59,751 bases of DNA from Actinomycetota bacterium (GTDB taxonomy: Bacteria; Actinomycetota; Acidimicrobiia; IMCC26256; JACDBD01). Positions within the stretch are counted from its first letter, which is position 1. Every line of letters starts with the position of its first letter. A program made the position numbers and the translations under genes. Where the stretch lies: the NCBI GenBank assembly GCA_046724655.1, contig JBKOWY010000112.1, forward strand, positions 1-59,751, read 5' to 3'. This document shows, piece by piece, positions 17,905 through 37,371 of the stretch. Below the pieces are notes generated by a model, which was not told the origin of the DNA, searched no databases, and saw only the letters and a list, made by a program, of their open reading frames with translations.

Positions 17905-17963
17905 GTCGCCGTCGCAGGCTCCGGCTCCTGCGACGACGATCGGCAATGCCGTCCTCGTCGCGG
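17905..17963 (+). repeat. Interspersed structured repeat, copy F (diverged)
   Basis: GTCGCCGTCGCAGGCTCCGGCTCCTGCGACGACGATCGGCAATGCCGTCCTCGTCGCGG. It lies in the cysO-cysM spacer, 7 nt before the cysM start. The 3' hairpin is kept as GCGACGA/TCGTCGC. Confidence 0.75.
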
Positions 17964-17977
17964 CCATCAGGCCCTGC

Positions 17978-18253
17978 CTATCCCCCGGCGACCGCGGGGA
18001 GGATCGAGACGACGTCGCCGTCGGTCAGCTTGGTGTCGAGCTGGTCGAGGTACCGGACGTCGTCGTCGTTGCGGTACACGTTGACGAACTTCCGCAGGCT
18101 GCCCGAGTCGTCGACGAGCTGCTCGGAGATGCCCGGGTAGCGGACCGCGAGCTCGGCGAAGACTTCGCCCACGGTGCCTTCGGGGGCCGTCACCGACGTC
18201 GCGCCACCGGCGAGCGGGCGCAGCTGCGTCGGCAAACGGACTTCGACGGGCAC
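17978..18253 (-). CDS. cysO: MoaD/ThiS-family sulfur carrier protein (CysO-like), C-terminal GG
   Basis: 91 aa ending ...ILPAVAGG. GTG start. It sits between the JAMM protease and cysM. Confidence 0.85.
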   Translation of the reverse strand: MPVEVRLPTQLRPLAGGATSVTAPEGTVGEVFAELAVRYPGISEQLVDDSGSLRKFVNVYRNDDDVRYLDQLDTKLTDGDVVSILPAVAGG

Positions 18254-18304
18254 GCCGTCAGTCTACAAGTCGACCTGTACGGTCCGGATTTCCGCGGCTT
18301 CCCA

Positions 18305-18736
18305 TCATGAGACGACGACCTGGCACTCGGCGATGTCGCCGTCTCGGATGCGGTACGCGCGCAGCACAGGCTCGGCGTCGCGCAGGCTCACGAGCACATA
18401 GACCCACTCGGGGTACCACGCGGCTTGGGCGACGTCGGTCGCCGACGGGTATGCGTCGGTGTGGGTGTGGCTGTGCCAGCAACCTACGATCTCTTCGCCT
18501 CGCTGCTCAGCCGCACGCATCGCCGCGATCTGGTCGCGGCCGTCGATCCGGTACGTCAGCGCGGACGCGTCCTCGTTGCGGCACGGTCGCACCTCGGTGA
18601 CGACACCCGACGGCTCCCGGTCGGAAACCGGGCCGATGAGCAGCCCGCACGCCTCGTAGGGCAGCCCGTCGTAGGAGTGGCCGATGATCGTGCGGTAATG
18701 CTCGTCCGTGAGCCGGAGCGATGTCGCGAAGCCCAT
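18305..18736 (-). CDS. mec: JAMM/MPN+ metalloprotease (Mec-like)
   Basis: 143 aa with EACGLLIG and WHSHTHTDAYPSATD (HxHx7Sx2D). Confidence 0.85.
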   Translation of the reverse strand: MGFATSLRLTDEHYRTIIGHSYDGLPYEACGLLIGPVSDREPSGVVTEVRPCRNEDASALTYRIDGRDQIAAMRAAEQRGEEIVGCWHSHTHTDAYPSATDVAQAAWYPEWVYVLVSLRDAEPVLRAYRIRDGDIAECQVVVS

Positions 18737-18742
18737 CGGGTG

Positions 18743-21046
18743 TCAGCGGGGCGGCGAGGCGGCGTCGCGGATGGCCCGCCACACCCGCTCGGACGTGAGC
18801 GGCATGTCCAGGTGGCGAATCCCGTAAATCGACAGCGCGTCGACGACCGCGTTCTGCGCCGCCGGCGTCGAGCCGATCGTGCCCGCCTCACCGATGCCCT
18901 TGGCGCCGAGCGGGTTCAGCGGCGTCGGCGTCTCGGTGTTCGACGCCTCGAAGCTCGGCAGCTCGGCAGCGCTCGGCATCGCATAGTCCATGAGGTTGGC
19001 CGTTTGCGGGTTGCCGTCCTCGTCGTAGGCGACGCCCTCGTACAGTGCCTGGGCCACGCCCTGCGCGATGCCACCGTGCTGCTGCCCGCGGACGAGGAGC
19101 GGGTTGATGACGCGGCCGCAGTCGTCGACGGCCACGTGGCGTAGGAGCTCAACGTGACCCGTCTCGGTGTCGACCTCGACCACTGCGATGTGCGCGCCGA
19201 ACGGATAGGTGGCCTCTCCCTGGTTGTAGTCGAGATCGGCCCGCAGGCCCTCCTCGAAGTCGGGCGGCCGCTTGGCTTCGTCGGACGCGGCCAGAGCGAG
19301 CTCCGCCCACGACAGCGAGGTGGCGGGGGCGCCGACCACGCCGATCCGGCCGTCGTCGTGCACGACGATGTCGGTGATGTCGGCCTCGAGCAGGTGCGCG
19401 GCCAGTCGCTTGGCCTTGTCGAGCACGAGCTCGCTCGTCTTGTACAGTGCGCTGCCGCCGATTTGCATCGAGCGCGATCCCATCGTGCCCATCCCGCGCG
19501 GAACGAGCGCGGTGTCGGATTGCACGACGCGCACGTTGTCGAGCGACATCCCGAGCAGTTCGGCGACGATCATCTTGAACGCCGTCTCGAGACCCTGCCC
19601 GTGTGCTGATGTGCCTACCGTCGCGGTGACGGTGCCGTCGGTGTGGACCTCGACCGCGCCATACTCCTGGAAGAGTCCGCCCGCGGTCACCTCCGTGTAG
19701 ACGGAAATGCCGATCCCGAGCTGCTTCACGTCGCCGCGCTCACGCCGCTCCGCTTGATCGCGGCGCAGCTCCTCGTACCCCGCGACGCGACAGGCCTCGT
19801 CCAGAGCTTTGGCGTAGTCCGCGGAGTCGTAGTTGGCGCCGGTCACCGTGGTGAGCGGGAACTCTTCGGGACGGAGAAAGTTCTGCTTCCGAAGGTCGAC
19901 CGGATCGCGGCCCAACTCCAGGGCGGCCATGTCGACGATGCGCTCGAGCAGCGCGGCCGCCTCCGGGCGGCCGGCGCCCCGGTACGCGCTCGTCGGCGTC
20001 GTGTTCGTGATCGCGCTCTTCGAGTTCATCTGGATCTTGGGGATGCGGTACACGCCCTGACTCATCGACCGGGTGAGGTACGGCAGGAACGAGCCGATCC
20101 CGGGATACGCGCCGCCGTCGCACACGATCTGTCCCCGCAGGCCGGTAAAGGTGCCGTCGCGCTCGAGGCCGAACTCGATGTGCTGGATCTGCCCGCGGCC
20201 GTGGGTCATCGCCGTCATGTTCTCGGATCGGGTCTCCGCCCACTTCAACGGCCGCCCGAGCTTCCGGGCCGCAGTGGCGACCACGGCGAACTCCGGGTAC
20301 AGGCCCGCCTTGGCACCGAAGCCACCGCCGACAGCCGCCGCCACCACCCGAACCCGCTCCTCCTCCAGCCCGACGACGCCGGCGAGTGGGTCGCGCACAC
20401 CGTGCGGGTTCTGGGTCGGGACATGGAGGGTGAGACCGTCCTCGCCGTCGAGCTCGACGAGGATGCCGTTCGGCTCCATCGGCACGGGCGCGAGGCGCTG
20501 GTTCACGAAGCGTCCCTGCACGACGACGTCGGCGTCGTCGAGGATCGCCGGGTCGTCCCCGAAGTTGAACTGGATGGCGAGGTTCGAACCGTGCTCGGGG
20601 AAGACGAGGGGCGCGTCATCCGAGAGCGCGGCCTCGGGGTCGATCACGGTGGGCAGCGGGTCGTAGTCGACGATCACCATCTCGGCGGCGTCGACCGCCT
20701 GGGCGCGCGTCTCGGCGACGACGGTCGCCACCATGTCGCCCACGAAACGCACGACGCCACGCGCGAGCGGCGGCCGCGCCAACGAAGCGGGAACCATCGC
20801 AAACCCCTGGAGAGGCTCGAGGCCGAGGTCGTCGGCCGTGTACACAGCGACGACGCCCGGCATCGCGACCGCATCGCTCGTGTCGATCGACTCGACTCGA
20901 GCGTGCGCCATCGTCGACCGCACGAACGCGACGTGGAGCAAACCCTCGACCTCGATGTCGTCGAAGTACTCCGCGTCCCCCCGCAGGATGCGAGGGTCCT
21001 CGGTGCGCTTGACCGGATTACCGAGAATGGAGCCGGAGGTGGTCAT
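18743..21046 (-). CDS. Molybdopterin-binding large subunit of the xanthine dehydrogenase/CoxL family (form II-like AYRGAGR motif)
   Basis: ORF track 18743..21169. True start is ATG 21046 (MTTSGSILGNPVKRTEDPRILRG) with AGGAG upstream. AYRGAGRPEA is present. The stop lies 6 nt before the mec start. No CoxM/CoxS-type genes are in the window. Confidence 0.85.
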   Translation of the reverse strand: MTTSGSILGNPVKRTEDPRILRGDAEYFDDIEVEGLLHVAFVRSTMAHARVESIDTSDAVAMPGVVAVYTADDLGLEPLQGFAMVPASLARPPLARGVVRFVGDMVATVVAETRAQAVDAAEMVIVDYDPLPTVIDPEAALSDDAPLVFPEHGSNLAIQFNFGDDPAILDDADVVVQGRFVNQRLAPVPMEPNGILVELDGEDGLTLHVPTQNPHGVRDPLAGVVGLEEERVRVVAAAVGGGFGAKAGLYPEFAVVATAARKLGRPLKWAETRSENMTAMTHGRGQIQHIEFGLERDGTFTGLRGQIVCDGGAYPGIGSFLPYLTRSMSQGVYRIPKIQMNSKSAITNTTPTSAYRGAGRPEAAALLERIVDMAALELGRDPVDLRKQNFLRPEEFPLTTVTGANYDSADYAKALDEACRVAGYEELRRDQAERRERGDVKQLGIGISVYTEVTAGGLFQEYGAVEVHTDGTVTATVGTSAHGQGLETAFKMIVAELLGMSLDNVRVVQSDTALVPRGMGTMGSRSMQIGGSALYKTSELVLDKAKRLAAHLLEADITDIVVHDDGRIGVVGAPATSLSWAELALAASDEAKRPPDFEEGLRADLDYNQGEATYPFGAHIAVVEVDTETGHVELLRHVAVDDCGRVINPLLVRGQQHGGIAQGVAQALYEGVAYDEDGNPQTANLMDYAMPSAAELPSFEASNTETPTPLNPLGAKGIGEAGTIGSTPAAQNAVVDALSIYGIRHLDMPLTSERVWRAIRDAASPPR

Positions 21047-21056
21047 GAACACTCCT

Positions 21057-21112
21057 GTCGCCGTCGCAAGCTCCGGCTTTGTGGCGACGGTCAGCGAAGC
21101 CGCCGTCGCCGC
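21057..21112 (+). repeat. Interspersed structured repeat, copy A
   Basis: GTCGCCGTCGCAAGCTCCGGCTTTGTGGCGACGGTCAGCGAAGCCGCCGTCGCCGC. It lies 10 nt upstream of the coxL-like start and 22 nt before the smpB start. An AT-rich TATAGATTTCG box lies just beyond it. Confidence 0.85.
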
Positions 21113-21134
21113 ACGAAATCTATACAGTCCGGTC

Positions 21135-21596
21135 GTGGGCCGTCGCGGCGACGCCGTCGCCATCCGCAACCGGCGCGCCCGGTACGACTACCACGTGCTC
21201 GATTCGTTCGAGTGCGGGATCGTCCTGGCGGGATCGGAGGTGAAGTCGATCCGTGACGGGCGCGCCAACCTCCAGGACGCGTACGCCCGGGTCGAGGACG
21301 GCGAGGTGTGGCTCCACGGGATGCACATCGCGCCGTACGAGTTCTCCCGGGCCGAGCTCGAGCCGACGCGTCGCAGGAAGCTGCTCCTGCACCGTAAGCA
21401 GATCGAGACCCTGACCCGCGCCACAGGCGAGAAGGGGGTGACCCTGGTGCCGTTGCGCCTCTACTTCAAGGACGGACGAGCGAAGGTCGAGCTGGCCGTG
21501 GCCAAGGGGAAGCGCGCCTACGACAAGCGACGCGCCATCGCCGAGCGCGATGCCAAGCGGGAGACCGAGCGGGCGATGAAAGGTCTGCGCGACTGA
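21135..21596 (+). CDS. smpB: SsrA-binding protein
   Basis: C-terminal 153 aa of ORF 20733..21596: IRNRRARYDYHVLDSFECGIVLAGSEVKSIR...LLLHRKQI...GKRAYDKRR. GTG 21135 is the first start outside the antisense coxL-like gene. Confidence 0.9.
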   Translation: MGRRGDAVAIRNRRARYDYHVLDSFECGIVLAGSEVKSIRDGRANLQDAYARVEDGEVWLHGMHIAPYEFSRAELEPTRRRKLLLHRKQIETLTRATGEKGVTLVPLRLYFKDGRAKVELAVAKGKRAYDKRRAIAERDAKRETERAMKGLRD

Positions 21597-21600
21597 GGGG

Positions 21601-22734
21601 TCAGCCCGGCCCCGGCGTTGGCGCAGTACTGCGCGCCCGCTCGAGATCCGTCGGCGTGACGATGCCGACGAGCCGGTCGCCGTCGAAGACGAGGATCGAC
21701 TGGGACGGTCCCCGCGCCGGACGCACAGCAACGTCTGACAGCTTGTCGTCGCGCTGCGCGGTGCGGATCAACGGCATCTGCACCGTGTAGTCGGAGACGC
21801 GCCGGGTCGCGGCCTCGGTCGGTGGCACCGACCTCAGCTGCTCCACGTTCGCGAGCCCGGCGATGCCGCCGTCATAGCGCTCGACCGGCACGACAGGGTC
21901 GTGCATGCGCGGCGCGTCGTCACGAAGGAACTCACCCACGGTGAGCCAACCACGCGCCCGGGGAGGATCGGGTGTCATCACGTCGCCCACGCGCACGTCG
22001 CCGAATGCTCGGCGGCTGCGCGCCACCTCTCGCTCCGCCCGCGCCGCGCTGATCACGAACCAGCCGATCAGCGCCGTCCACAGCCCGCCGAACCCGAGGC
22101 CGACGAGCCACCCTAGCGCGCCGGCGCCCACGAGGAGCCAACCGAAGACCACACCCACCTGGGCCGCGCTCTCTATGGCTTGGTCGCGGTCACCGCGGAC
22201 GGCCCACAGCAGGGATGCCAGGATGCGGCCGCCGTCGAGCGGCGCGGCCGGAATGAGGTTGAAGACCGCCAGGATTGCGTTGATCACGGCAAGCCACGCC
22301 AACGCCGAACCGAGCAGGCCTGGTCCGCCGAGCGCGCTGATCGCGGCCGCGCCCACACCGAACACCCCTCCGAGCAGCAGGCTTGTCCCGGGACCGGCGG
22401 CGGCGATGAGGAACTCGGCCCGGGGGGCCGGCGCCTCGCCCTCGAGCCGGGCGACCCCGCCGAGCATCCAGAGGGTGATGCTGTCGACGCGGATGCCGTG
22501 CCGCTGCGCGACGACCGAATGGGCGAGCTCGTGGGCGAGCACCGACGCGAAGAAGATGGCCGAGGTGAGGATGCCCACGACCCAGTAGGAGCCGGCGGGA
22601 GCGTCGGGGAACTCCATCGGGTAGCGATCGCCGGCGAGGCTCACGGTGAGCAGGGCGGCGATGACGAGAAGCGTCCAGTCGATCGTGACCGGTATCCCGA
22701 GGATCCGTCCCAGCCGAATGCCGCCGCGTCCCAT
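21601..22734 (-). CDS. Site-2 protease family (M50) membrane metalloprotease with C-terminal CBS pair
   Basis: ORF track 21601..22845. ATG 22734 (MGRGGIRLGRILGIPVTIDW) is more plausible. Contains LAHELAHSVVA (HExxH), NLIPAAPLDGGR, and CBS-like repeats at the C-terminus. Confidence 0.85.
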   Translation of the reverse strand: MGRGGIRLGRILGIPVTIDWTLLVIAALLTVSLAGDRYPMEFPDAPAGSYWVVGILTSAIFFASVLAHELAHSVVAQRHGIRVDSITLWMLGGVARLEGEAPAPRAEFLIAAAGPGTSLLLGGVFGVGAAAISALGGPGLLGSALAWLAVINAILAVFNLIPAAPLDGGRILASLLWAVRGDRDQAIESAAQVGVVFGWLLVGAGALGWLVGLGFGGLWTALIGWFVISAARAEREVARSRRAFGDVRVGDVMTPDPPRARGWLTVGEFLRDDAPRMHDPVVPVERYDGGIAGLANVEQLRSVPPTEAATRRVSDYTVQMPLIRTAQRDDKLSDVAVRPARGPSQSILVFDGDRLVGIVTPTDLERARSTAPTPGPG

Positions 22735-22777
22735 CACGAAGAAGAACGTCGCCCGGAACCGCTGTGTTCCTTCATCT

Positions 22778-22890
22778 GGCGCCCTCGCAAGCTCGGGCTC
22801 TGTCCTTTTGGTCGCATGCTCCCGCTCTGCAACGGCAGTCGGCAAAGCCGCTGCCGTTGCGGGCGACGGTCAGCAAAGCCGCCGTCGCCA
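22778..22890 (+). repeat. Interspersed structured repeat, copy B (composite: 5' arm plus two 3'-hairpin modules)
   Basis: GGCGCCCTCGCAAGCTCGGGCTCTG / TCCTTTTGGTCGCATGCTCCCGCTCTGCAACGGCAGTCGGCAAAGCCGCTGCCGTTGC / GGGCGACGGTCAGCAAAGCCGCCGTCGCCA. The inner stem is GCAACGGCAG (22829-38) with CTGCCGTTGC (22851-60). Confidence 0.8.
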
Positions 22891-22936
22891 CGACTACCTC
22901 GCGAAATCTCCCCGGTAGAATGGGCCGATACACCGA

Positions 22937-23294
22937 GGGGGTGACTGGCTTCGATTCTGAGGACCAAAACGGGTGAAGCGAGCCGACGTCCCCGGATCGT
23001 CGCTAAAGAGCCGGGAACACCAATAAATGCCGAGGACAAGAACCTCGCACTCGCTGCTTAATAACTAAGTAGCGCGTCCACTCCGGCCCAGCCGCTCGGC
23101 CGGACACCGGGCGTCATGCAGAGCGGCTCACCGCCGGGACGGGCCTCGCGGCCCGGCGGGACACCACAGCGAGGCTGGGGTCGCCGGACGCCGCCGGTGA
23201 GCGGCGGCGGCCCGAGAACTCCTCACCGGCTGCGCTCGGAGAAGCCCCGCTGAGGACTCGGAAGACGCGGGTTCGATTCCCGCCACCTCCACCA
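22937..23294 (+). ncRNA. ssrA: tmRNA (SsrA)
   Basis: The 5' GGGGGTG pairs with the 3' CACCTCC-A-CCA (G3-U identity pair). T-arm-like GGTTCGATTCCCGCC is present. Tag reading frame is GCC GAG GAC AAG AAC CTC GCA CTC GCT GCT TAA TAA (23029-23064), encoding AEDKNLALAA. Confidence 0.92.
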
Positions 23295-23317
23295 CCGCCG
23301 CCAACCGCTCGAGTGCC

Positions 23318-24337
23318 TCAGGTGGTCGTGCCGAGCGCGAGGTCGGCGGCGACGACGACGTCGCGGGTGGTGTCTCTGAGGGCGTTCGCCGTCGCAAGGT
23401 CGGGGAGGCCCTCGCCGAAAGCGGGAACGTCGAGCACGGTTTCGAGCACGCCGGGCTCGGCGAAGTCCATGCGTGCGCCGGCGCGACGAAGTACCGCCCG
23501 CATGGCCGCGTTGTCGGAGAGCAAGCGAGCCCGGAAGCGTCGGACGCCGTTCTCTCGCGCCGCGACCGCCAGCGCGCCCAGCAAGAGCGTGCCGAGCCCG
23601 CGGCCCTGGTAGTCGTCGACGACGGCGAACGCGACCTCGGCGGTATCGCGGGCGTCCCGCTCGCGGATGTAGCGGGCGGATGCGACTCCGGGCTCACGGG
23701 GGTCGGCTGCGGCCAGCACAGCCCAGGCGAAGTGATCGACGTAGTCGACGTCGATCAGGTACTCGATGACCTTGTCGGTGAGCGGCGGGGCGCTGAAGAA
23801 CCTCCGATAGTGCGACTCCCGCGAGAACCCCGGTTGCGTGTCGGCGAGCTTCCCGCGGTCGCTCGGAAGCACGGGTCGGATCCACAGCCGGGTGCCATCG
23901 GCCAGCGTGATCTCGACCGGGCGGGTGTTCGCGGCCAGACGCTGTCGCGCCGTGCGCCCGATCCGTTCGGCCACGCCCGGTACGTGCAAAAGCGTCATGA
24001 AGGCGCGCGCGTCGCCCGCGTAACCGGTGAGGGGGCCGCTGGCGATGACGGTGGCCGAGCGCGGCGCCGCCCGCAGGACGCTCAGCTCACCGACGATGGA
24101 GCCCGGGCCGACCGCGCCGACCTGGCGTTCGCCGTCGCCGTCGTCACGGGCAACGACGGCTGCTCCTGTGACAACAAGGAGGAATGAGTGTGCGACTTCG
24201 CCTTGCCGGGCCAGCACCTCACCTGGCTGTGCGTCAGCCGACGTCAGCATCGAAGCCAGCGCCAACAGCTGTGACTGTTCGGACGCGCGGAACAGCTCCA
24301 GACGAGAGAGATCCGCCACCACCGCGCCGATGTCCAC
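23318..24337 (-). CDS. Cyclic-nucleotide-binding domain fused to GNAT acetyltransferase (Pat/Rv0998-like protein acetyltransferase)
   Basis: 339 aa. N-terminal cNMP fold (GEVLARQGEVAHSFLLVVTG...GSIVGELSVL...RSATV). C-terminal GNAT (AFAVVDDYQGRGLGTLLL). Confidence 0.82.
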   Translation of the reverse strand: MDIGAVVADLSRLELFRASEQSQLLALASMLTSADAQPGEVLARQGEVAHSFLLVVTGAAVVARDDGDGERQVGAVGPGSIVGELSVLRAAPRSATVIASGPLTGYAGDARAFMTLLHVPGVAERIGRTARQRLAANTRPVEITLADGTRLWIRPVLPSDRGKLADTQPGFSRESHYRRFFSAPPLTDKVIEYLIDVDYVDHFAWAVLAAADPREPGVASARYIRERDARDTAEVAFAVVDDYQGRGLGTLLLGALAVAARENGVRRFRARLLSDNAAMRAVLRRAGARMDFAEPGVLETVLDVPAFGEGLPDLATANALRDTTRDVVVAADLALGTTT

Positions 24338-24402
24338 TGCGCCAGTTCAGCGCGGCGACATCGCTGCCGCACCTCGCCATGTGCTCGTAACCTCGTCGGC
24401 GC

Positions 24403-24699
24403 ATGAATTACTTCGTCTACAAGCTCATCCCTCCCCGACCGACCTTCGACGCCGACATGAACGACGAGGAAGCGGCCACCATGGGGCGTCACGCCGAGTA
24501 CTGGCAGGCCTTGCTTGCCGATGGGTACGTCGTCGTCTACGGGCCCGTCAGCGAACCGTCAGGTACGTGGGGGCTGGCCGTCTTCGAAGCCGAGGACGAG
24601 GAGAAGGCTCGGGCGATCGGCGCGGGCGATCCAGCGGTGCAGTCCGGTATGTGCACGTTCGACGTCTTCCCGATGGCCGCCGCGATCGTCCGCTCCTGA
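24403..24699 (+). CDS. YciI-like small protein
   Basis: 98 aa, MNYFVYKLIPPRPTF...GYVVVYGPV...DPAV. ATG at 24403. Confidence 0.75.
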   Translation: MNYFVYKLIPPRPTFDADMNDEEAATMGRHAEYWQALLADGYVVVYGPVSEPSGTWGLAVFEAEDEEKARAIGAGDPAVQSGMCTFDVFPMAAAIVRS

Positions 24700-24763
24700 G
24701 GAAGCTGTCGATTCTGCGCATTCCCGTTCGTCGTACGGGTGTCCGAGACGACGAGGAGGAGTC

Positions 24764-25111
24764 ATGCGATACGCGTTGATGATCTGCACCGACGAGCGCA
24801 ACGAGGTGGCACGAAGCCCCGAAGAGGATTCGGCGCTGCTGGCCGAGTACGGGGCCTTCGGCGAGGAGATGGGGCGCCGGGGCGTGCTCCAGGACGGCAA
24901 CCGCCTCCGTCCGACGACCGACGCCACGACGGTCCGGGTGCGCGACGGCGAGGTCCTCACATCCGACGGTCCCTTCGCCGAGACCAAGGAACAGATCGGG
25001 GGCTACTACGTCGTCGACTGCAAGGACCTCGACGAGGCCATCGAGGTCGCGTCCAAGATCCCGAGCGCCAAGGAAGGAACGATCGAAGTGAGGCCGATCT
25101 GGGAGATGTAG
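24764..25111 (+). CDS. YciI-family (DGPF-motif) protein
   Basis: C-terminal 115 aa of ORF 24515..25111: [11 protein letters not shown]...[42 protein letters not shown] lies upstream of ATG 24764. Confidence 0.85.
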
Positions 25112-27009: not shown

Positions 27010-27057
27010 CGTCTGCTCCCCCTGTCAACCGTCGCCACGGAGGCTATCGAGCGCTCG

Positions 27058-27636
27058 TTACCCGAGACCGTCGAGGACCGCCCGCCCCCGGGGCGAGAGG
27101 CGGTACCCCACGTCGAGGCTCTCGGTGAGGCCGAGCTCCTTCAGCTTTCGTACGTCCCGCTTGAACGACAGCCGCTCGCGGCCGACGGCGGCGGCGAGAT
27201 TGCCGGCCCGAACGGCGGGGTGGTCGCGGATCAGCCGCAGGGCCTGAATCGTCCAGGGGCCGTGGCGGCTCGCGGCGTCGAGCCGTTCGAGACGGCTCCG
27301 CACCTCGGCCAGCTCGTCCGACGTCAGCGCGTCGCGCTCGCGCAGCACGGCGCGTGGGTCGCTACCGGCGAGGTGCAACGCGACCCGGTACACGGAGCCG
27401 TCGGTACGCGACGCGAGCTCGTCCAGCAGGTCGACCCGCGACGAGAAGCCGGCGCGGCGAGCGTCCTTCTCGCTGATCTCAGCGATGTCCACCTCGTCCA
27501 CGGCGTCGACGGCAAGGACCCCGATCGCCGTCCGCAGCTGACTCCCCGCTCGAACGCGCGGACGCACCCAGCGCCGGAAGGCGAGGCTGACCGTCCCGCC
27601 GGCAATGCCGTCGAGGACGTGCCGCTTGAACAGCAA
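27058..27636 (-). CDS. ASCH-like domain protein with C-terminal winged-helix
   Basis: 192 aa. TTG start abuts the upstream stop. N-terminal FKRHVLDGIAGGTVSLAFRRW resembles ASCH. The C-terminal KRDVRKLKELGLTESL is wHTH-like. Family call is tentative. Confidence 0.5.
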   Translation of the reverse strand: MLFKRHVLDGIAGGTVSLAFRRWVRPRVRAGSQLRTAIGVLAVDAVDEVDIAEISEKDARRAGFSSRVDLLDELASRTDGSVYRVALHLAGSDPRAVLRERDALTSDELAEVRSRLERLDAASRHGPWTIQALRLIRDHPAVRAGNLAAAVGRERLSFKRDVRKLKELGLTESLDVGYRLSPRGRAVLDGLG

Positions 27637-29278: not shown

Positions 29279-29287
29279 CTCTGGCCT

Positions 29288-29346
29288 TCCCGCTCGTTGC
29301 TTCCGGCTCGTTGTTGTCTCCGGCTCATTATTGCATAAATCAATAA
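29288..29346. promoter_or_regulatory. Divergent control region: three tandem ~15-nt direct repeats followed by an AT-rich palindrome
   Basis: TCCCGCTCGTTGCT / TCCGGCTCGTTGTTG / TCTCCGGCTCATTATTG, then TTATTG-cataaat-CAATAA (29328-29346) inside an AT-rich stretch (~29325-29358). It lies between the cupin-arsR operon start (29278) and yqgE (29411). Confidence 0.45.
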
Positions 29347-29410
29347 CTATTTTCTATCAGGTGAAGAACCTGCGCGCAAGCCCGGGTCGGGCGCGGGGCA
29401 TGATCGGAAC

Positions 29411-29965: not shown

Positions 29966-29973
29966 TGTAGGCG

Positions 29974-30366: not shown

Positions 30367-30391
30367 CCTCGCGTCCGTCGTCAGTCGCTGG

Positions 30392-31317
30392 TCAGCCGCC
30401 GGCCAGCGGCAGGCAGGCCTGCTCGTCCTGGAAGAAGCCCAGGCGGAACGCCTCCATCCGCTCGAACGCCGTCCCGCGCGTCGCTTCTTTCGCCTCAGCG
30501 GGATCGCCGAACACGAGGAACGCCTGCACGACCTCGTCGAGGTCTCCGGGTGAGAGCGCGAACGCGGCCTCGCGCGTCTCGGGAAGGCCGCGCGCTTGGA
30601 CGGTGCACTCCTGGTCCACGGGGACGCTGCCCACCCACGCGCCGGTGAAGCAGTCGGCCTGCAAGCCGACCTCCTTCCGCTCCACGGTGATGGCGAGACG
30701 GGACTGCATGGCCGAGGCCCACGCGTTCCCGATGAGGGTCGCGACACCGAAGTCGCCGATGTCGTTGTAGACGCCCCGGATGAGGTCACGGTCGTACGCG
30801 ACGAAGTCTTCGTCCTCGCAATAGAAGATCGAGTCCTTGTAGTCGCTGGCTTTGAAGTTCAGGCTCGGGAACCTCGGCAGCGACTTCTTCTCCTTCGGGT
30901 TGTAGGAGATCACGTCGCTCACGCTCTTGTAGGTCTCTCCCCCGAAGGAACGAAGTCCCGAACTCCTTGCACAGGCGCGGGAAGAGGTCGCCGTTGTCGT
31001 AGTTCACGCTGCCATCAAGCCGGCAGAAGAACGCGTTGCCCCGGAAGTCCTTGTACGTCCGGCCCGTCGCACGAGCGCACTTCGTCATCTCCTTCATGTT
31101 GGTGCTCGCGTCGTACGCGTGGATCTTGCTGTTCGGGATCCGCTCGTACGGCTTGCCGTAGACCGCCGGCATCTCCGTCTCCCAGAAGTCCTGGATGTCC
31201 TCGATGGCCGTCTTGAGTCCTTGTCGTACGGCTTTGCTGCCGGCCGATCCGCCACCGCCGTGCCGACCCCCACCCGCTGACCGCCGCAACCACCACGGCG
31301 CTGACGAACGGCCCCAT
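30392..31317 (-). pseudogene. Membrane-anchored protein gene interrupted by two +1 frameshifts (possible neutral Zn-metallopeptidase-like family)
   Basis: AGGAGG-ATG 31317 gives MGPFVSAVVVAAVSGW (TM anchor). The coding signal moves to a second frame after the G5 tract at 31271..31267 (…GGGGSAGSKAVRQGLKTAIEDIQDFWETEMPAVYGKPYE…CKEFG). It moves to a third frame after the G5 tract at 30943..30939 (…GETYKSVSDVISYNPKEKK…GLQADCFTGAW…). Third-position GC bias follows these switches. Confidence 0.6.
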
Positions 31318-31431
31318 GCACCTCCTGAGCACCCGGAACCCCTCACTCGTCCCCGCCCGCTACCGGGGAAGGGCCGCTGGTCTGGCAAATCGGCGGCGGT
31401 CCCGCGAACAGTCACTTGCTGTACTGGAGTC

Positions 31432-32412
31432 ATGGCCGATCCGTTGCCGGTCGTCGTCGAACGCGGTGACCTCGACGAGCTCGTGCGTCTCGTCGACACC
31501 CTGTGCGGGTCGCGCGAGTGGGATCGCGTCATGGAGCTACGCGATCGGTGCGTGCACGCGATCGAACGAGGCCGGCAGCTCTGGCCCGTCGCGGCCCACG
31601 CCGAATATCGACTGGCGCTCGAGGCACCGGGTCGCTGGGCGGCGCGGATGCTCGTCGAAGGCGCCGGTCGCTTCGCGCCAGGTCCACTGTCCGAGGTGGC
31701 GGCGTCGACGCACGAGTGGGCCGAGCTCGCGCCGCATGCCTCACCGGGACCGCTGGCAGTGGTGACCGCGCACGAACGCGTGCTCCGCGGTGAGGATCTC
31801 ACCGGGGAGTCGCTGCCGGGCCCGGCGGTGCTCGATCTTCCGCTGCGCCTGGCCGAATGGGAGCCCGACTACTTCCTGGCGCACTACCGCCCCGACGGCG
31901 CCGACTTCCCCGGGCCCTCGCCCGCCGCGCTCCACCGCGCCGAGGTCCCGTCGCGCGTGGCTGACGGAACGCGCGACGCGGCGACCGAGGCGCTCGTTGA
32001 CGCGGTACGGCCCTGGACCGAGGGCTCGGAGGGGCGCGCCGAGGCGATCGCGGTCCGCGGCGACGCCCTCGACGCGATCGCTGCGCTCGGACGTGATCGA
32101 GTGCGGATGGTGGAGCTCGATCTCTCCGCCGCTCTGCGCCTACTGGCCTGGGCAGGCGCGAGCGGCGGCGCGCACGCGCGCCGTCCAGGCGCGGCCGTAG
32201 GACGCTTCGCCGCGTGGTGGACGGGCGCCGCGCTCGCCGGGCTCCTGGACCGGTGGCCGGTCGACGCCGACGAGCTCGGAGACGCGCTGGCGGGGTTGGC
32301 GTGGTACGCCTGGGACGCCGGCGGACCCGCGACCGGCTGGCGACTCCACCTTGCGATCGAGGACCGGGGCTCGACGCGCGCCTGGGCAGTCGCCGCCGTC
32401 GACCTCGGGTGA
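31432..32412 (+). CDS. Hypothetical protein
   Basis: C-terminal 326 aa of ORF 31195..32412, from ATG 31432 (MADPLPVVVERGDLDELVRLVD...). Coding-like bias. No family recognised. Confidence 0.55.
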   Translation: MADPLPVVVERGDLDELVRLVDTLCGSREWDRVMELRDRCVHAIERGRQLWPVAAHAEYRLALEAPGRWAARMLVEGAGRFAPGPLSEVAASTHEWAELAPHASPGPLAVVTAHERVLRGEDLTGESLPGPAVLDLPLRLAEWEPDYFLAHYRPDGADFPGPSPAALHRAEVPSRVADGTRDAATEALVDAVRPWTEGSEGRAEAIAVRGDALDAIAALGRDRVRMVELDLSAALRLLAWAGASGGAHARRPGAAVGRFAAWWTGAALAGLLDRWPVDADELGDALAGLAWYAWDAGGPATGWRLHLAIEDRGSTRAWAVAAVDLG

Positions 32413-32436
32413 CCACGCCGAGCGCGGCCCTAGATT

Positions 32437-33300
32437 GTGCCCGTGGACGCACTTCGGTTCTTCGGGCTCGCGCGCACTGAAGATCCCGACGACTGGCAGC
32501 TGCCCGTGGTACCCCAGCTTTGCTCGGGACGAGGCACGCTGTTCGGCGGTTGCGGCCTCGGCGCCGCCATCGAGGCGCTCGAGCGCACAACCGATCGACC
32601 GCTCGTGTGGGCGAGCGCGCAGTACCTCTCGTACGCGCGGCCGCCGTCGATCGTCGAGATCGAGATCGACGAGGTCGTGCGTGGTCATCGCTCGTCCCAG
32701 GCGCGCGCGGTTGCGCGCGTCGACGGCGAGGAGATCTTCACCGTGAACGCCGCGCTGGGTTTCCGCGACCTGCCGTTGTCGGGGTCGTGGGCCGTCCGGC
32801 CCGACGTGCCGCCGCCCGACGCGAGCCCACCCCGCGAGACGCTGCCGCGCCACCGGGGAACGATCATGGACCGCCTCGAGACGCGCATCGCCGCCGGGCG
32901 TCCGATCCACGAGCTGCCGGGTCCGCCCGGTGACGGCCGCGCGGCTCTGTGGGTGCATCTCCCGTCTCTCGAGATGTCGGCGGCGGCGCTCGCGATCGTC
33001 GGTGACTTCGTCCCGTTCGGGGTGGGCCAGGCATTGGGCGAGCGCGCCGGCGGCAACAGCCTGGACAACACGCTGCGGGTCGTGACCCGTCACCCGACCG
33101 AGTGGATCCTGGCCGACGTGCGCGTGCACGCCATCGCCGGAGGTTTCGGGCACGGGCTCGTGCATCTGTGGGCCGAGGACGGCACGCTGCTCGGCACCGC
33201 GAGCCAGTCGGCGATCGTGCGCAAGCACCGTGACTGGGAGGAGGATGAGGCGGCCGGCGAAAGCGGCTCCGAGACCCGAGCGGAGGGAGGCACCGCATGA
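32437..33300 (+). CDS. Acyl-CoA thioesterase II-like (double hot-dog)
   Basis: 287 aa with LFGGCGLGAAIEAL in the N-terminal half, a second hot-dog half, and an acidic tail. GTG start. Confidence 0.75.
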   Translation: MPVDALRFFGLARTEDPDDWQLPVVPQLCSGRGTLFGGCGLGAAIEALERTTDRPLVWASAQYLSYARPPSIVEIEIDEVVRGHRSSQARAVARVDGEEIFTVNAALGFRDLPLSGSWAVRPDVPPPDASPPRETLPRHRGTIMDRLETRIAAGRPIHELPGPPGDGRAALWVHLPSLEMSAAALAIVGDFVPFGVGQALGERAGGNSLDNTLRVVTRHPTEWILADVRVHAIAGGFGHGLVHLWAEDGTLLGTASQSAIVRKHRDWEEDEAAGESGSETRAEGGTA

Positions 33301-34262
33301 GCGTCCCGCAACGTCACGGCATCACCGTGCCGTTCGAGGGGGTGCCGCTGCACGCGCACCGAGAGTGGTTCGAAGAGATCGCGGCTCTGGGCTACACGGA
33401 CTTGTGGTCGGCCGAGTCGGGCGGCGCCGATGCGTTCACCCCTCTCGCGCTAGCCGCGGCATGGACGCCGTCGCTGCGGCTCGGCACCGCGATCGTGCCC
33501 GCCTTCACGCGGGGCGCGGCGACGCTCGCCGAGACCGTCGCGAGCATGGCGCAGGCCGCGCCGGGACGTTTCGCGCTCGGCATCGGGGCATCCTCGAACG
33601 TGATCGTCGAGAACTGGAACGGCATCCCCTTCGACGAGCCGTACCGGCGCGTCCGGGACACGATCAGGTTCCTCCGTGCGTCGCTCGCAGGCGAGAAGGT
33701 CACGCACGAATACGACACATTCAGCGTGAGGGGGTTCCGCCTCGGGATCCGGATCGACGAGATGCCTCCCATCCTCGTCGCCGCCCTCCGCCCGGGCATG
33801 CTGCGCCTCGGCGGCCGAGAGGGCGACGGCGCGATCATCAACTGGCTGTCGGCGGAGGACGTGAAGACCGTCGTGCCGTACGTGGGTGACGACAAGGAGA
33901 TCGTGGCCCGGATCTTCGTGCTCCCGACTGACGATCAGGACACGGTGCGGTTCATCGGGAAGCGGGCGATCGCCGCCTACCTCAACGTTCCCGTGTACGC
34001 GGCGTTCCACGCGTGGTTGGGGCGGGGTGAGACGCTCGAGCCCATGTGGCAGGCGTGGAGCGCGGGTGACCGCGAAGCAGCAACGGCCGCGATCCCCGAT
34101 GAGCTTGTGGACGCGCTCATCGTGCACGGGACGCCGGCGGAGATCCGGGAGCACCTGGCGCGATACGCGGCGAACGGGGTGACGACCCCGGCGCCGGCCT
34201 ACCTCGCCGGCCCTGATGACACTCGCCGAGCGCTGCGCGAGCAAGCCCCCAGAGCGCGCTGA
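33297..34262 (+). CDS. LLM-class (luciferase-like) flavin/F420-dependent oxidoreductase
   Basis: 321 aa with GYTDLWSAES, RLGTAIVPAFTR, GRFALGIGAS. ATGA overlap with the upstream gene. Confidence 0.85.
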   Translation: MSVPQRHGITVPFEGVPLHAHREWFEEIAALGYTDLWSAESGGADAFTPLALAAAWTPSLRLGTAIVPAFTRGAATLAETVASMAQAAPGRFALGIGASSNVIVENWNGIPFDEPYRRVRDTIRFLRASLAGEKVTHEYDTFSVRGFRLGIRIDEMPPILVAALRPGMLRLGGREGDGAIINWLSAEDVKTVVPYVGDDKEIVARIFVLPTDDQDTVRFIGKRAIAAYLNVPVYAAFHAWLGRGETLEPMWQAWSAGDREAATAAIPDELVDALIVHGTPAEIREHLARYAANGVTTPAPAYLAGPDDTRRALREQAPRAR

Positions 34263-34273
34263 GGCCGTGCCGG

Positions 34274-35005
34274 CTACGCGACCTGCTTGAGCTTCACCTC
34301 CTCGTGGCGAAGGCTCGCCTGCCGGCACGCAAGGAGGCCACGTATCGCCCACCAGCCGGGGTCCACCTCGCGACGTCCGAGCGCGAACCGTGCAGACGTC
34401 GGCGCCGCGTGGTGGTTGTTGTGCAGTCCCTCGCCCGCCGTGAGCCACGCCAGCCACTGCGAATTGCCAGCCGGATTGTCGTGCGGACGGCGGCCGCGCA
34501 TGTGACCTACCGCATTGATCGCTCCGCTCAGCATCAAGTAGCTCACGGCGTGGATGCCCGAAGCCAGCAAACCCGTCTGCCAACCAAGCGTCACGCACAG
34601 GATCCCGATCCCGATCGCGAGCCCCAGCAGACCGTGGTCGAAGAACCAGCGGTCGAGCCGGTCGGGCGCGAGATCCCGCGCGTACCTGCGCACGGTGAGC
34701 CGATCGCGAGCTACACGCCGGTACAACCCGGCGTTGGCAAGCTGCACACGCCAGAAGCCGAGGATGCGCGGGCTGTGCGGATCGGCCGGCGTGTCGGACG
34801 TCGCATGATGGCGGCGATGCACCGCCACCCACTCGCGCGGTCGCATGCCGGTGGTGATCCATAGGAGGACGCGACATGCGAGCGTCGGTAGTCCACGCAT
34901 GCTCAACGCTCGATGGGCCAGCGTGCGGTGCAGGTACACCGTGGTCACGATGACCGAGAGCTGCGTGACAAGGAACCCGGCAAGCAACGCGAGCGGCACG
35001 TTCAC
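34274..35005 (-). CDS. Membrane fatty-acid (acyl-CoA/acyl-lipid) desaturase
   Basis: 243 aa with three His boxes: HRTLAH, HRRHH, HNNHH. N-terminal TM helices. GTG start. Confidence 0.85.
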   Translation of the reverse strand: MNVPLALLAGFLVTQLSVIVTTVYLHRTLAHRALSMRGLPTLACRVLLWITTGMRPREWVAVHRRHHATSDTPADPHSPRILGFWRVQLANAGLYRRVARDRLTVRRYARDLAPDRLDRWFFDHGLLGLAIGIGILCVTLGWQTGLLASGIHAVSYLMLSGAINAVGHMRGRRPHDNPAGNSQWLAWLTAGEGLHNNHHAAPTSARFALGRREVDPGWWAIRGLLACRQASLRHEEVKLKQVA

Positions 35006-35050
35006 GAATGAGTCTCCTCGCTCGGAGCGGACGGTTGGGTGGTCCGGACG

Positions 35051-35073
35051 CTACTCTACCGACCAGTAGGTAG
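35051..35073. promoter_or_regulatory. Imperfect inverted repeat in the desaturase/TetR divergent region (candidate TetR operator)
   Basis: CTAC(T)CTAC-cgacca-GTAGGTAG: 8-bp arms with one extra T, between starts at 35005 (-) and 35111 (+). Confidence 0.4.
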
Positions 35074-35110
35074 GCACACGCGCCACGACTGCTCGGGGCT
35101 CGAGGACCGC

Positions 35111-35731
35111 ATGGGAACCACGACCGACGCCCAGGCGCACGGCACGAGGACCCTCATTCTCGACGCCGCCCTGCGCCGATTCGCCGAGCACGGATACCAC
35201 GGGACCAGCCTCAACGACATCGCCGACGCCGTCGGCATCCGCCGGCCGAGCCTCCTCCACCACTTCCCGTCCAAGGAAGCGCTCTACCGCGCCGTGCTGC
35301 TGGACGCGTTCGCAGACTGGTTCGCGCTCGTCGACGAGGCGATCGCGACTCCGCAAAAGAAGGGGTGGCCCCAGGTGGAGCGCGTCCTACGGGCGGCATT
35401 CCGTTTCTTCGAAGAGCACCCCGACTTCGTCCGGCTCGCCCGGTGGGAGGCGTTGGAGGGCGGCCCGATGCTGTCGGAGGAGCTGGGCGCGATGTTGCGG
35501 CCGCTGTTCGAGCGCGCGACCGAGTTCCTCGAGCGCGAGATGAGCGCGGGCCGGCTGCGTCGCTACGACGCGGGCCAGCTTCTGCTCACGGGTTATGGCG
35601 CCGTGCTCTCGTATCTGTCGGATGCGCCGTTGATCAACTCCTTGCTCGGCGCCGATCCGCTTGGTCCCGCGATGCTCGCCAAGCGGCGGGAGCACGTCAT
35701 CGACGTGCTCCGCAACGCGCTCGAATCGTAG
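35111..35731 (+). CDS. TetR-family transcriptional regulator
   Basis: From ATG 35111 in ORF 35039..35731: [47 protein letters not shown]. Confidence 0.9.
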
Positions 35732-35735
35732 ACGC

Positions 35736-35791
35736 GCGGCGACGGCGGCTTTGCCACCGTCGCCGCAGGAGCCGGAGCTTGCGACGGCGAC
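35736..35791 (-). repeat. Interspersed structured repeat, copy C (inverted in window coordinates)
   Basis: The rc reads GTCGCCGTCGCAAGCTCCGGCTCCTGCGGCGACGGTGGCAAAGCCGCCGTCGCCGC. It lies 4 nt after the tetR stop and 10 nt after the convergent gene's stop, so it is in sense for the tetR transcript. Confidence 0.85.
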
Positions 35792-35801
35792 CAATGAATC
35801 C

Positions 35802-36521
35802 TTAGAACTTCGCCTGCTCGCGAAACCGCTCGAACAGCGCCGCGTCGCCGAAGATGTCGACCTCGTTCGTGGGTTTGCGCCCGTAGAGCACCAGCAGCAG
35901 ATCGGATGCCGGCCCCCGCACCGCGACATCACCTTTGGCGTGCTCATGCGTCACGTGCATCGCGTCGCCGTCGAATCGAATCAACCACTCCCCCGGGGCG
36001 TCGGTGGAGTGGAGATGGGCGGAACCCGAGTCGGGAAAGCGGCGGCCCGGGAAGGACGGCACGAGAGTGAGGTACTCGTCGACGCCGTCCACTGCGAGCG
36101 GGCCGTCAATGGCATCTTCGGCCCCGCCGGTGTGCTGGGCATCCCAGCGATGCATGGCCGTCTCCTGGGCCGTGCGACGGGCCCAGAACCCGACGCTGTG
36201 ATCGAACGGGACCCATGTCCAGCAGGGCGCCGCGGGATCTTTCGCTTCGAGCTTGGTTGCGAGGGTCTCGGCGCCGGCCTGCAGCCACTCGTCCGCCGCG
36301 CCGTCGGGCGCGTGCGCAAACCGCTCGAACATCTCACCATCCGGGGGACGATCAAGGTTTCCCGCCACCCATCGGTGGTGCGAGCCGAGGTGACGGACAA
36401 GGTCGTGCAGCGTCCACTCGGGGCACGACGGCACGATCGTGTCCGCCGGGGTGTCACGGACGGCCCGGGCCGCCCCAGCCGCATTCGCTCGCAGCGCGGC
36501 GATGTACTCGTCGTACTCCAC
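35802..36521 (-). CDS. Maleylpyruvate isomerase-family mycothiol-dependent enzyme (DinB-like), second paralogue
   Basis: C-terminal 239 aa of ORF 35802..36779: VEYDEYIAALRANAAG...CPEWTLHDLVRHLGSHHRW. GTG 36521 shares its G with the TAG of the upstream SRAP gene (CTAGTG). Confidence 0.8.
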   Translation of the reverse strand: MEYDEYIAALRANAAGAARAVRDTPADTIVPSCPEWTLHDLVRHLGSHHRWVAGNLDRPPDGEMFERFAHAPDGAADEWLQAGAETLATKLEAKDPAAPCWTWVPFDHSVGFWARRTAQETAMHRWDAQHTGGAEDAIDGPLAVDGVDEYLTLVPSFPGRRFPDSGSAHLHSTDAPGEWLIRFDGDAMHVTHEHAKGDVAVRGPASDLLLVLYGRKPTNEVDIFGDAALFERFREQAKF

Positions 36522-37300
36522 TAGAGATCCAACGTAGCTTCGAGCGCCACCCGCTCCACGAGGTCGGGTCCGTCGTTGTCGGCGCTGTTGACCCGGGTGC
36601 CTACGGGATACGCGACGAGCAGATCGTCGGCTGCCGGCGTCAGCATCCGACCGAGCGCGTCGGTCTCGGTGGCGATCGGGTCGAGCCATCGATCCCAGTC
36701 GCGCTCCTCGAGCACGACCGGCATCCGATCGTGGAGCGGGGCAATCGTGTCGTTGGCGTTCGTCGTGACGATCGCGCACGAGCGCAGCCAGTCACCATCG
36801 GGCTCGCCCTCGTACCGCTCCTCCTTGTCGCCGTCGCAAGCTCCGGCTTTCCGGCGAGGATCGGCAAAGCCGCCCTCGCCGCGCCACGCCGCCCACAGGC
36901 CGGCGAGCGCCATTGGCTCGCCATCTCGGCGGTGAATGAACATCGGCTGCTTCCGGCCCCCGCGTCGCTGCCACTCGTAGAAGCCCTCCGCGGGCACGAG
37001 GCAGCGGTGCTTCTGGAACGCGCGCTGGTAGGCAGGCTTGTCCGCCAGCGACTCGGCGCGGGCGTTGATCATGCGGTCCCCGCTTCTCGGGTCCTTTGCC
37101 CACGACGGGACCAGGCCCCACCGCAGCTCCGAGAGATACCGGCGACGATCGTCGTCAACGGTCCGGTCCCGGACTGCGTACACGGTTGCCCGGGGCGCCA
37201 CGTTCCAGCTCGGCTCGTGGTGCGGGGTCGCCACCTCGTGGACGCCGAACCGTTCCACCAGGAGGTCGGGCGACGAGACCTGCACGAAGCGGCCGCACAT
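36521..37300 (-). CDS. SOS-response associated peptidase (SRAP/YedK/HMCES family)
   Basis: 259 aa with MCGRF (catalytic Cys2), WNVAPR, INARAES, CLVPAEGFYEW, HDRMPVVL. It contains an extra loop encoded by repeat copy D. Confidence 0.9.
   Translation of the reverse strand: MCGRFVQVSSPDLLVERFGVHEVATPHHEPSWNVAPRATVYAVRDRTVDDDRRRYLSELRWGLVPSWAKDPRSGDRMINARAESLADKPAYQRAFQKHRCLVPAEGFYEWQRRGGRKQPMFIHRRDGEPMALAGLWAAWRGEGGFADPRRKAGACDGDKEERYEGEPDGDWLRSCAIVTTNANDTIAPLHDRMPVVLEERDWDRWLDPIATETDALGRMLTPAADDLLVAYPVGTRVNSADNDGPDLVERVALEATLDL
36827..36882 (+). repeat. Interspersed structured repeat, copy D, inside the SRAP coding sequence
   Basis: GTCGCCGTCGCAAGCTCCGGCTTTCCGGCGAGGATCGGCAAAGCCGCCCTCGCCGC. 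On the coding strand it translates in frame as ...RGEGGFADPRRKAGACDGDK... The stem is kept as CGGCGAGG/CCTCGCCG. Confidence 0.85.
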
Positions 37301-37315
37301 GCAGGCGATCCTACG

Positions 37316-37371
37316 GTCGCCCTCGCAAGCTCGGGCTTTGCGGCGACGGTCGGCAAAGCCGCTGTCGCCGC
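37316..37371 (+). repeat. Interspersed structured repeat, copy E
   Basis: GTCGCCCTCGCAAGCTCGGGCTTTGCGGCGACGGTCGGCAAAGCCGCTGTCGCCGC. It lies 15 nt upstream of the SRAP ATG (37300). A TATAC box lies immediately beyond it on the mRNA-sense side. Confidence 0.85.

Follow-up and report, generated by a model that had tools for sequence, protein, structure and literature searches.

A mobile 56-nt repeat with two covarying hairpins that may serve as a ready-made 5′ mRNA leader in soil Acidimicrobiia

The 59,751-nt contig JBKOWY010000112.1 of an Actinomycetota bacterium (the window) carries six copies, here named A to F, of a short interspersed repeat. We lean, if not strongly, toward the view that this element is a mobile, non-autonomous repeat used by its host as a ready-made 5′ mRNA leader. 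The copies belong to a family with two covarying hairpins (HP1 and HP2) on the sense strand of the downstream gene, stand in a defined register to the −10 box, the Shine-Dalgarno (SD) sequence and the start codon, are present or absent at orthologous sites of related genomes, and show a conservation pattern that differs between the two hairpins. In the leader that we propose, transcription would start at the beginning of the element or a few bases into it, and the RNA would begin with the very stable 14-bp HP1, which may protect its 5′ end from 5′-end-dependent RNases. HP2 would come next, directly before an unpaired SD and the start codon and, since its sequence is almost invariant, could act as a specific recognition site for a factor. 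If inserted downstream of the −10 box and ahead of the start codon of a gene without a leader, the element would make that gene leadered and SD-dependent.

A repeat family with two covarying hairpins

The six loci, which an initial annotation had picked out from the sequence, are exactly those recovered in the 59.7-kb window by nhmmer (a profile hidden Markov model search) and by a covariance model (CM), with no other significant match. Allowing at most three mismatches, the consensus halves each give four matches, against 0.00 expected from 100 shuffles. Beyond the window, an exact 22-mer of the unit matched at least 112 eight-kb blocks from about 20 soil metagenome-assembled genomes (MAGs) labeled Acidimicrobiia, Actinomycetes or Actinomycetota, and nhmmer found 154 matches in the fetched blocks, 103 of them full length. 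The density is about one copy per 10–20 kb, judging from the six sites in the window, two in a 20-kb locus of the closest relative that was not chosen for the element (L113), and some 30–40 extra copies in 0.7–0.8 Mb of blocks. A genome would then hold roughly a hundred copies or more, a figure extrapolated from local density and not a complete-genome count. The family nevertheless looks restricted to a narrow clade, since among SmpB-linked Acidimicrobiia loci only L113 carries the element and about 30 others are without it. Viral contigs searched for the element gave no match. At the Rfam gathering threshold only the tmRNA and one tRNA pass in the window, and a search around copy B at a permissive E-value returned unrelated families, the best with an E-value of 0.25. 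Full-text literature searches with the core sequence in either orientation gave no match, and keyword searches led to general reviews only. A block from a MAG labeled Chloroflexia (L095, 4810–4851) contains an HP2-like 22-mer without HP1 (30.8 bits), for which a remnant, a transfer, a binning error and chance are all conceivable sources.

When the copies are oriented by their flanks, the unit reads 5′-GCGGCGACGGCGGCUUUGCCGACCGUCGCCGC-A(A/GG)A-GCCGGAGCUUGCGACGGC-GAC-3′. The consensus as first written is the reverse complement of this, the strand that matches the transcript. HP1, a hairpin of 14 bp, has a UUU loop and a single bulged A; its sequence drifts while its pairing is kept. HP2, which had been overlooked, reads GCCG-GA-G[CUUG]C-GA-CGGC, with a covarying 4-bp stem (GCCG/CGGC, GCCC/GGGC or GCGG/CCGC), a symmetric GA/GA step that probably forms tandem sheared G·A pairs, and a G-C pair closing a CUUG tetraloop; its loop region GAGCUUGCGA is nearly invariant. 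RNAfold of the consensus yields exactly HP1 and HP2 with the SD free (−37.9 kcal/mol, z = −4.9, 81% of the ensemble). The ends of the unit (5′ GCGGCGACGG, 3′ GCGACGGCGAC) are direct repeats, the inverted repeat (HP1) being internal, and the unit's sense strand contains no start codon. Copies are mostly single, with one tandem pair, in L062. Six loci (L002, L013, L015, L016, L077 and L111) carry a subfamily with a symmetric GGA/GGA internal loop in HP1 (GCGGAGGCGGCGGC...GCCGACCGCCGGAGC), which thus recurs across several genomes.

Covariation was measured in an alignment of 97 copies (A2) against 500 shuffles and slid-partner controls. As many as 95.6% of cells are paired, both sides have changed in 12 of 19 pairs, and each of five measures is reached by 0 of 500 shuffles; with slid partners, pairing is only 21–64%. 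For HP1 taken separately, double changes occur in 10 of 14 pairs and none of the 500 shuffles reaches the observed score, which bears out the earlier claim that the long hairpin is preserved by compensatory changes. Helices with compensatory changes beyond the controls characterize structured RNA in general. The gene-sense strand moreover contains 59 G·U pairs and only 17 A·C pairs (p = 1.4e-6), so that the structure under selection forms on the strand in sense with the gene downstream.

The two hairpins are conserved in different ways. Since the 22-mer used to fetch loci lies in HP2, the invariance of HP2 in A2 is inflated, and so is the contrast between orthologous pairs (divergence of 1.9% in HP2, 10.5% in HP1 and 13.5% in the flanks), which is supportive only. 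In an unbiased subset of 50 copies, whose inclusion is independent of their own sequence, mismatch to the consensus is 2.6% in the HP2 loop and 4.8% in the HP2 stem (mostly covarying), compared with 7.5% in the HP1 inner stem, 12.7% in the HP1 loop, 14.7% in the tail and 16.6% in the HP1 outer stem. Within the same copies, the HP2 loop is thus about six times better conserved than the HP1 outer stem. Orthologous copies in L041 and L088 differ by double compensatory changes in HP1, and different HP2 stem variants coexist in one genome, as in copies B and F of the window, the latter with GCCC/GGGC. The pattern is one in which HP1 would have to pair whatever its sequence and HP2 would have to keep its sequence. 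The quality of HP1 and HP2 does not differ between start-proximal and other copies, in a test that is biased by the exact HP2 22-mer.

Register with promoters and start codons, and filled and empty sites

As the initial annotation had stated for the window, the majority of copies lie in sense orientation shortly before a start codon. In the window, copies A, B, C and F precede cysM, a coxL-like gene, the M50 protease gene and the SRAP gene by 7, 10, 43 and 15 nt, copy D lies 4 nt after the tetR stop, copy E lies inside the SRAP coding sequence (CDS), and polarity with respect to the local gene is the same for all six. Across the family, 75 of 102 copies have a gene start supported by G+C content at third codon positions (GC3) at most 60 nt downstream in sense orientation, 56 of these at most 20 nt away, with a mode at 9–13 nt (37 of the 75). 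The antisense control gives 36 of 97 copies and no distance peak. A same-strand gene follows 70 of 93 copies, and copies are more frequent in divergent than in convergent regions (30 versus 11). The description of the repeat as always in sense holds in the window but not in the family, where 30 sense copies stand against 7 antisense ones in tandem-gene contexts (p = 2e-4; 0.005 against a 60:40 expectation). The view that the repeat is a structured, orientation-biased element and not debris is supported.

The register extends to both sides of the element. The 7 nt that follow are purine-rich, (A)AGGAG(A), and an SD-like 4-mer precedes the start in 53 of the 75 copies. On the upstream side, a TANNNT motif ends 1–5 nt before the element in 28 of 99 copies, with a peak at 4–5 nt, compared with a background of about 0.25 per position. 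A σ70 two-hexamer scan gave no matches near copies and was uninformative. Many further examples of an upstream TANNNT are found among divergent copies.

The same motif marks leaderless genes. In loci L001–L113 and the window (about 0.87 Mb), TANNNT separated by 6–8 nt from an ATG or GTG that opens a long, high-GC3 open reading frame (ORF) occurs 130 times, against about 5 times for each other spacing. This indicates that leaderless genes are common and that the distance from −10 box to transcription start is 6–8 nt; judging from sequence, leaderless mRNAs appear to be very widely used in the clade. Applied to the repeat, this distance would place the transcription start at element positions 1–4 and would make HP1 a 5′-terminal hairpin. 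As for the genes that would receive such a leader, the 75 downstream proteins comprise 105 Pfam families, none with more than 4 members, and share no common pathway. Since these genes are unrelated, the role of the element would be general, not pathway-specific.

Comparison of flanks across all loci yields many orthologous pairs of filled and empty sites, and by this measure the repeat is mobile. At five independent sites (Table 1), 6–8 nt separate the −10 box from the start codon in the empty genome, a leaderless geometry; in the filled genome, the same box stands 4–6 nt ahead of the element, after which come SD, spacer and start codon. L113 is syntenic with the window over 11.8–35.4 kb at about 82% identity. 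At site B, the whole 66-nt block of element plus SD and spacer is missing from L113 and L114, and in L113 the TATAGA box stands 8 nt before the ATG. Since "tatagatttcg" is still present at this empty site, the GATTTCG and TATAG motifs reported beside some copies, although present, belong to the host promoter and not to the repeat. Conversely, at the cysO site L113 has the element followed by aaggagagcga and ATG (L113 6781–6837), and it is the window that is empty. Copy A is present in L113 and missing from L114, L115 and L117. Outgroups are empty for B, A and cysO (several genomes for cysO), which makes insertion the parsimonious direction.

Target duplications are seen at some sites only. There is none at the five start-codon-proximal sites, where the start codon differs in three of the five. 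About ten copies at gene 3′ ends (in L017 (AAATCAGGC), L039, L062, L065, L079 (CGGTTAGGC), L082, L085, L090 and L068, plus window copy D) are abutted by clean 8–10-bp direct repeats that share a T(C/T)AG core and in many cases take in the neighbor's stop codon; over all copies, only a minority carry such a duplication. Copy D is flanked by GAATCgTAGA and GAATCctTAGA, a probable target-site duplication, and the corresponding site of L084 is empty, the two stop codons overlapping there. Two other observations concern empty sites. The window is empty at about 27022–27031, where a copy in L063 precedes the orthologous gene, and the window gene has its own SD-containing leader. Empty sites in L042, L055 and L017 keep a short GCGAC or ACGGCGCC-like remnant, as would be left if the 9-nt direct repeats (GCGACGGCG) at the unit ends had recombined and excised the element.

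The five start-proximal sites also raise the idea that the leader is added by a process that senses transcript 5′ ends, since this would account for three features seen there, namely a left junction at the predicted transcription start, a right junction at the start codon and a new SD that comes without target duplication. In one conceivable route, "element + SD" would be joined to the 5′ end of a leaderless mRNA by cDNA or template-switch copying, and the product would then recombine into the chromosome, which would be a DNA-level analogue of spliced-leader addition. Duplications of 8–10 bp, as in ordinary transposition, are seen only at gene 3′ ends. We regard this route as a long shot.

Two copies in the window depart from the simple arrangement. 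Copy C had been described as composite, which it is, but it is further a nested copy, in which an outer HP1 and an outer HP2 enclose a full inner copy with stems orthogonal to the outer ones (GCAACGGCAG/CUGCCGUUGC and GCGG/CCGC). At one orthologous site, a simple copy in L072 corresponds to a composite in L080, which shows nesting to arise by insertion into the HP1–HP2 linker. Only a degenerate HP2 is left at the copy C site of L113. An upstream ORF (uORF) of 13 codons (MKEHSGSGRRSSS) begins 2 nt downstream of composite C. The overlap of its stop with the start of the M50 protease gene (TGATG) suggests that the two are translationally coupled; the start region is kept in L113. Copy E is read in frame within SRAP, the SOS-response-associated peptidase, as about 18 residues (GEGGFADPRRKAGACDGD) in a surface loop that is about 24 residues longer than in solved (PDB) homologues, and the insertion is conserved in L084.

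Table 1. Copies of the repeat, neighboring features in the window, and start-proximal sites filled or empty in related genomes
Feature	Coordinates	Strand	Description
Copy A	17905..17961	−	Full element between cysO and cysM; CM 72.8 bits
Copy B	21057–21112	−	CM 77.4 bits; before molybdopterin-binding coxL-like gene
Copy B block	21047..21112	−	66 nt, element + SD/spacer aggagtgttc (21047–21056); ATG at 21046 adjoins
Host −10 box	21119..21124	−	TATAGA, 6 nt upstream of copy B; predicted
Copy C	22778..22889	−	Nested composite upstream of M50 protease gene
Copy C, outer HP1	22862–22889	−
Copy C, inner copy	22807–22860	−	Full copy
Copy C, outer HP2	22778–22804	−
uORF	22734–22775	−	13 codons
Copy D	35736..35791	+	Between convergent tetR and MDMPI genes; CM 74.9 bits
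tetR stop	35729–35731
MDMPI stop	35802–35804
Copy E	36827..36882	−	Inside SRAP CDS (36521–37300)
Copy F	37316..37371	−	5′ leader of SRAP gene, ATG at 37300; CM 80.9 bits
cysM	16965–17897		PALP family (Pfam)
cysO	17981–18253		ThiS family (Pfam)
tmRNA	22937–23294	+	Rfam; copy C faces away from it
Site B			Filled: window; empty: L113, L114
Site cysO	18254..18304 (empty)	−	Filled: L113; empty: window, TAGACT, then gacggc, then GTG, a leaderless-type promoter
Third site			Filled: L006; empty: L022, L067
Fourth site			Filled: L102; empty: L025
Fifth site			Filled: L108, L007; empty: L040

Other genes of the window identified by Pfam are JAB/mec, SmpB, M50 peptidase, TetR, MDMPI and SRAP. ARAGORN calls a 90-nt tRNA-Phe(gaa) at 27217–27306 that Rfam does not report at its gathering threshold and that is probably false or unusual. 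A different, 49-nt palindromic hairpin (GGCGTCGCTGC...GCAGCGACGCC) is present in two inverted copies (49163–49211 and 52207–52255) that are 88% complementary, are flanked by T/A runs and bracket about 3 kb. It was found in none of the 192 fetched loci and appears to be either another small repeat or two paired bidirectional terminators.

The proposed leader and competing explanations

Several points weigh against a function as a leader. About one-quarter of the copies lie outside 5′ leaders (at gene 3′ ends, between convergent genes, antisense or within a CDS), a perfect TANNNT match precedes only 28% of copies (perfect matches alone were counted), and copy A, although 7 nt before the cysM ATG, is without a clear SD. 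The strand asymmetry by itself does not separate RNA from single-stranded DNA, which also tolerates G·T pairs, gene conversion between copies could mimic purifying selection, and part of the apparent invariance of HP2 stems from the 22-mer used for fetching. Finally, the transcription start, the stabilization of the mRNA and the effect on translation are all things that we infer from sequence.

A purely selfish DNA element without host function, resembling a transposable element of the miniature inverted-repeat kind (MITE) or a REP sequence, would account for position and orientation by insertions that are tolerated in compact genomes as they keep the −10 box and supply an SD. Its recent mobility fits, the filled and empty sites differing between genomes that are about 82% identical, as do the target-site duplications of 8–10 bp at gene-3′-end copies, the insertions into other copies and into a CDS, and the unrelated downstream genes. 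Harder to reconcile with such an element are the roughly sixfold better conservation of the HP2 loop than of the HP1 stem in the same copies, the compensatory changes between orthologous copies, the excess of G·U pairs on the mRNA-sense strand, the very precise register of −10 box, element, SD and start codon, and the orthogonal stems kept by nested inner and outer copies. We consider this explanation unlikely, though it deserves to be taken seriously. It is rather more doubtful that the element is the cis target of a single global post-transcriptional regulator (protein, small RNA or ligand) acting at the HP2 loop, with 100 or more genes forming one regulon. The near invariance of GAGCUUGCGA while HP1 drifts and the end of HP2 only 3 nt before the SD region would suit a regulator, and a GGA/GGAG is located about 17 nt before the GGA of the SD; dimeric regulators that bind GGA, such as CsrA, use this spacing, although this is a lead and not a test. 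But the downstream genes have no function in common, a candidate regulator was not found, the predicted fold leaves the SD free, Rfam gives no match, and CsrA is not known from Actinobacteria.

Two further explanations start from the palindromic nature of the unit. If the element acted as DNA, as an operator overlapping the transcription start or as a terminator or attenuator hairpin, its palindromic HP1 and HP2 and the copies after stop codons or between convergent genes would be explained. Operators conserve sequence, however, while the HP1 arms covary freely and the HP2 stem varies within one genome (copy B versus copy F). For termination, neither hairpin is followed by a T-run or U-tract in the sequence and a terminator scan of 17800–23000 and 35500–37600 found no terminator-like sites; most copies, besides, are at 5′ ends. 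A role as DNA is therefore very unlikely. The initial annotation had instead proposed two mutually exclusive hairpins, the middle arm pairing with either the 5′ arm or the third copy of an 8-mer to form an RNA switch. The consensus does contain the required 7-nt complementarity (CCGUCGC/GCGACGG), but the alternative helix is without covariation (0.081 against a shuffled mean of 0.088, a score reached by 495 of 500 shuffles), its central pair is broken in 31 of 93 sequences, and HP1 and HP2 take up most of the predicted ensemble. The supposed partner, the third 8-mer, belongs to HP2, of whose covarying stem it is the 3′ arm, and we find a switch scarcely credible.

Relation to known systems and significance

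By function, the element seems closest to the Correia, ERIC and YPAL elements and to 5′ stabilizer hairpins. Correia elements (CREE/NEMIS) of Neisseria are small, dispersed, non-autonomous repeats that are often cotranscribed in the 5′ regions of unrelated genes, produce target-site duplications and fold as RNA into a hairpin that alters how stable the neighboring mRNA is (PMC2229807). The present repeat is likewise small and dispersed in the 5′ regions of unrelated genes and may act on the mRNA in a similar way; its duplications, of 8–10 bp, are found only at 3′-end sites. Correia elements, in contrast, measure 100–155 bp and have terminal inverted repeats, a TA duplication, an IHF site and promoters of their own, whereas the present 56-nt element is G+C-rich, has no terminal inverted repeats, uses a host −10 box and keeps a fixed register from transcription start to SD. 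The enterobacterial ERIC/IRU and YPAL/RU-2 repeats are transcribed, intergenic and affect mRNA stability in an orientation-dependent manner, and YPAL in particular is not A+T-rich, has internal inverted repeats and variable target duplications, and has a mobility deduced from filled and empty sites (PMC2229807). Our element is like YPAL in having internal rather than terminal inverted repeats, in not being A+T-rich and in its filled and empty sites. ERIC and YPAL, however, are 127–168 bp long and mostly lie between or after genes, not at the transcription start; they neither supply nor abut an SD and lack a conserved GA/CUUG hairpin. The 5′ stabilizers, such as the leaders of Escherichia coli ompA and Bacillus subtilis aprE/ermC, have a stable stem-loop at the mRNA 5′ end without single-stranded overhang, as HP1 would have with the start at positions 1–4. 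Such a 5′-terminal stem-loop geometry blocks 5′-end-dependent attack by RNase E/J. These leaders are features of single genes, in contrast to a dispersed, mobile, multispecies family, and have no conserved second hairpin.

Other likenesses are partial. REP/BIME/REPIN sequences are short, G+C-rich imperfect palindromes (like HP1) with hundreds of copies and a hairpin that can stabilize mRNA, but they are found chiefly 3′ of genes, in many cases as inverted doublets (REPINs), and are mobilized without target duplication by a repeat-flanked RAYT gene. Here, 75% of copies are at 5′ ends, copies are single, a second, non-palindromic conserved module is present and some copies have target duplications; membership in the REP/REPIN class was rejected on location (70 of 93 with a same-strand gene downstream) and single copies. 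The suggestion of a MIRU-like intercistronic unit is understandable, since MIRUs are actinobacterial repeats with an operon orientation bias and some copies here are intercistronic (e.g., copy A, between cysO and cysM). MIRUs are 46–101-bp units, often in tandem, with small ORFs overlapping the neighboring stop and start codons, and a hairpin does not define them. The present copies are mostly single, hairpin-based and usually at the transcription start rather than between cistrons; the class was rejected, as there are no tandem arrays (the L062 pair apart) and the sense strand of the unit is free of start codons. Rickettsia palindromic elements (RPEs) are likewise tolerated in frame in protein surface loops, as copy E is in SRAP, but they are 100–150 bp and mostly intragenic, which here is the exception. 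Putative mobile promoters (PMPs) are highly similar upstream sequences of unrelated genes, within or between genomes, whose means of mobility is not known and some of which may be RNA elements (Matus-Garcia, Nijveen and van Passel 2012; PMC3575422). They are defined on the region from −150 to −50 relative to the start codon and occur mostly as pairs, and in our family the repeated part is the leader, from transcription start to SD, and not the promoter itself. Three further assignments were rejected: a bacterial MITE, as the ends are direct repeats and not terminal inverted repeats matching an IS element, even though filled and empty orthologous sites show mobility; a riboswitch or curated cis-regulatory RNA, as there is no Rfam match and the downstream genes share no pathway; and an intrinsic terminator, as there is no U-tract and no terminator-like site in the regions scanned. 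What is unusual about the family is its fixed register from transcription start to SD, together with the proposed conversion of genes that lack a leader.

Some small, dispersed repeats are known to work as RNA, but we have not found a complete portable leader, from transcription start to SD, described in the literature. The 56-nt cassette is a candidate standard 5′ untranslated region for high-G+C expression hosts. The family bears on the contribution of leadered and leaderless genes in Actinobacteria, on the role of 5′-terminal hairpins in mRNA decay and on the recognition of GA/CUUG hairpins. If a mobile repeat used as a leader is the right explanation, it would give bacteria a simple route for switching genes between leaderless and SD-led translation initiation, and would show how dozens to hundreds of unrelated genes acquire a common 5′ end structure.

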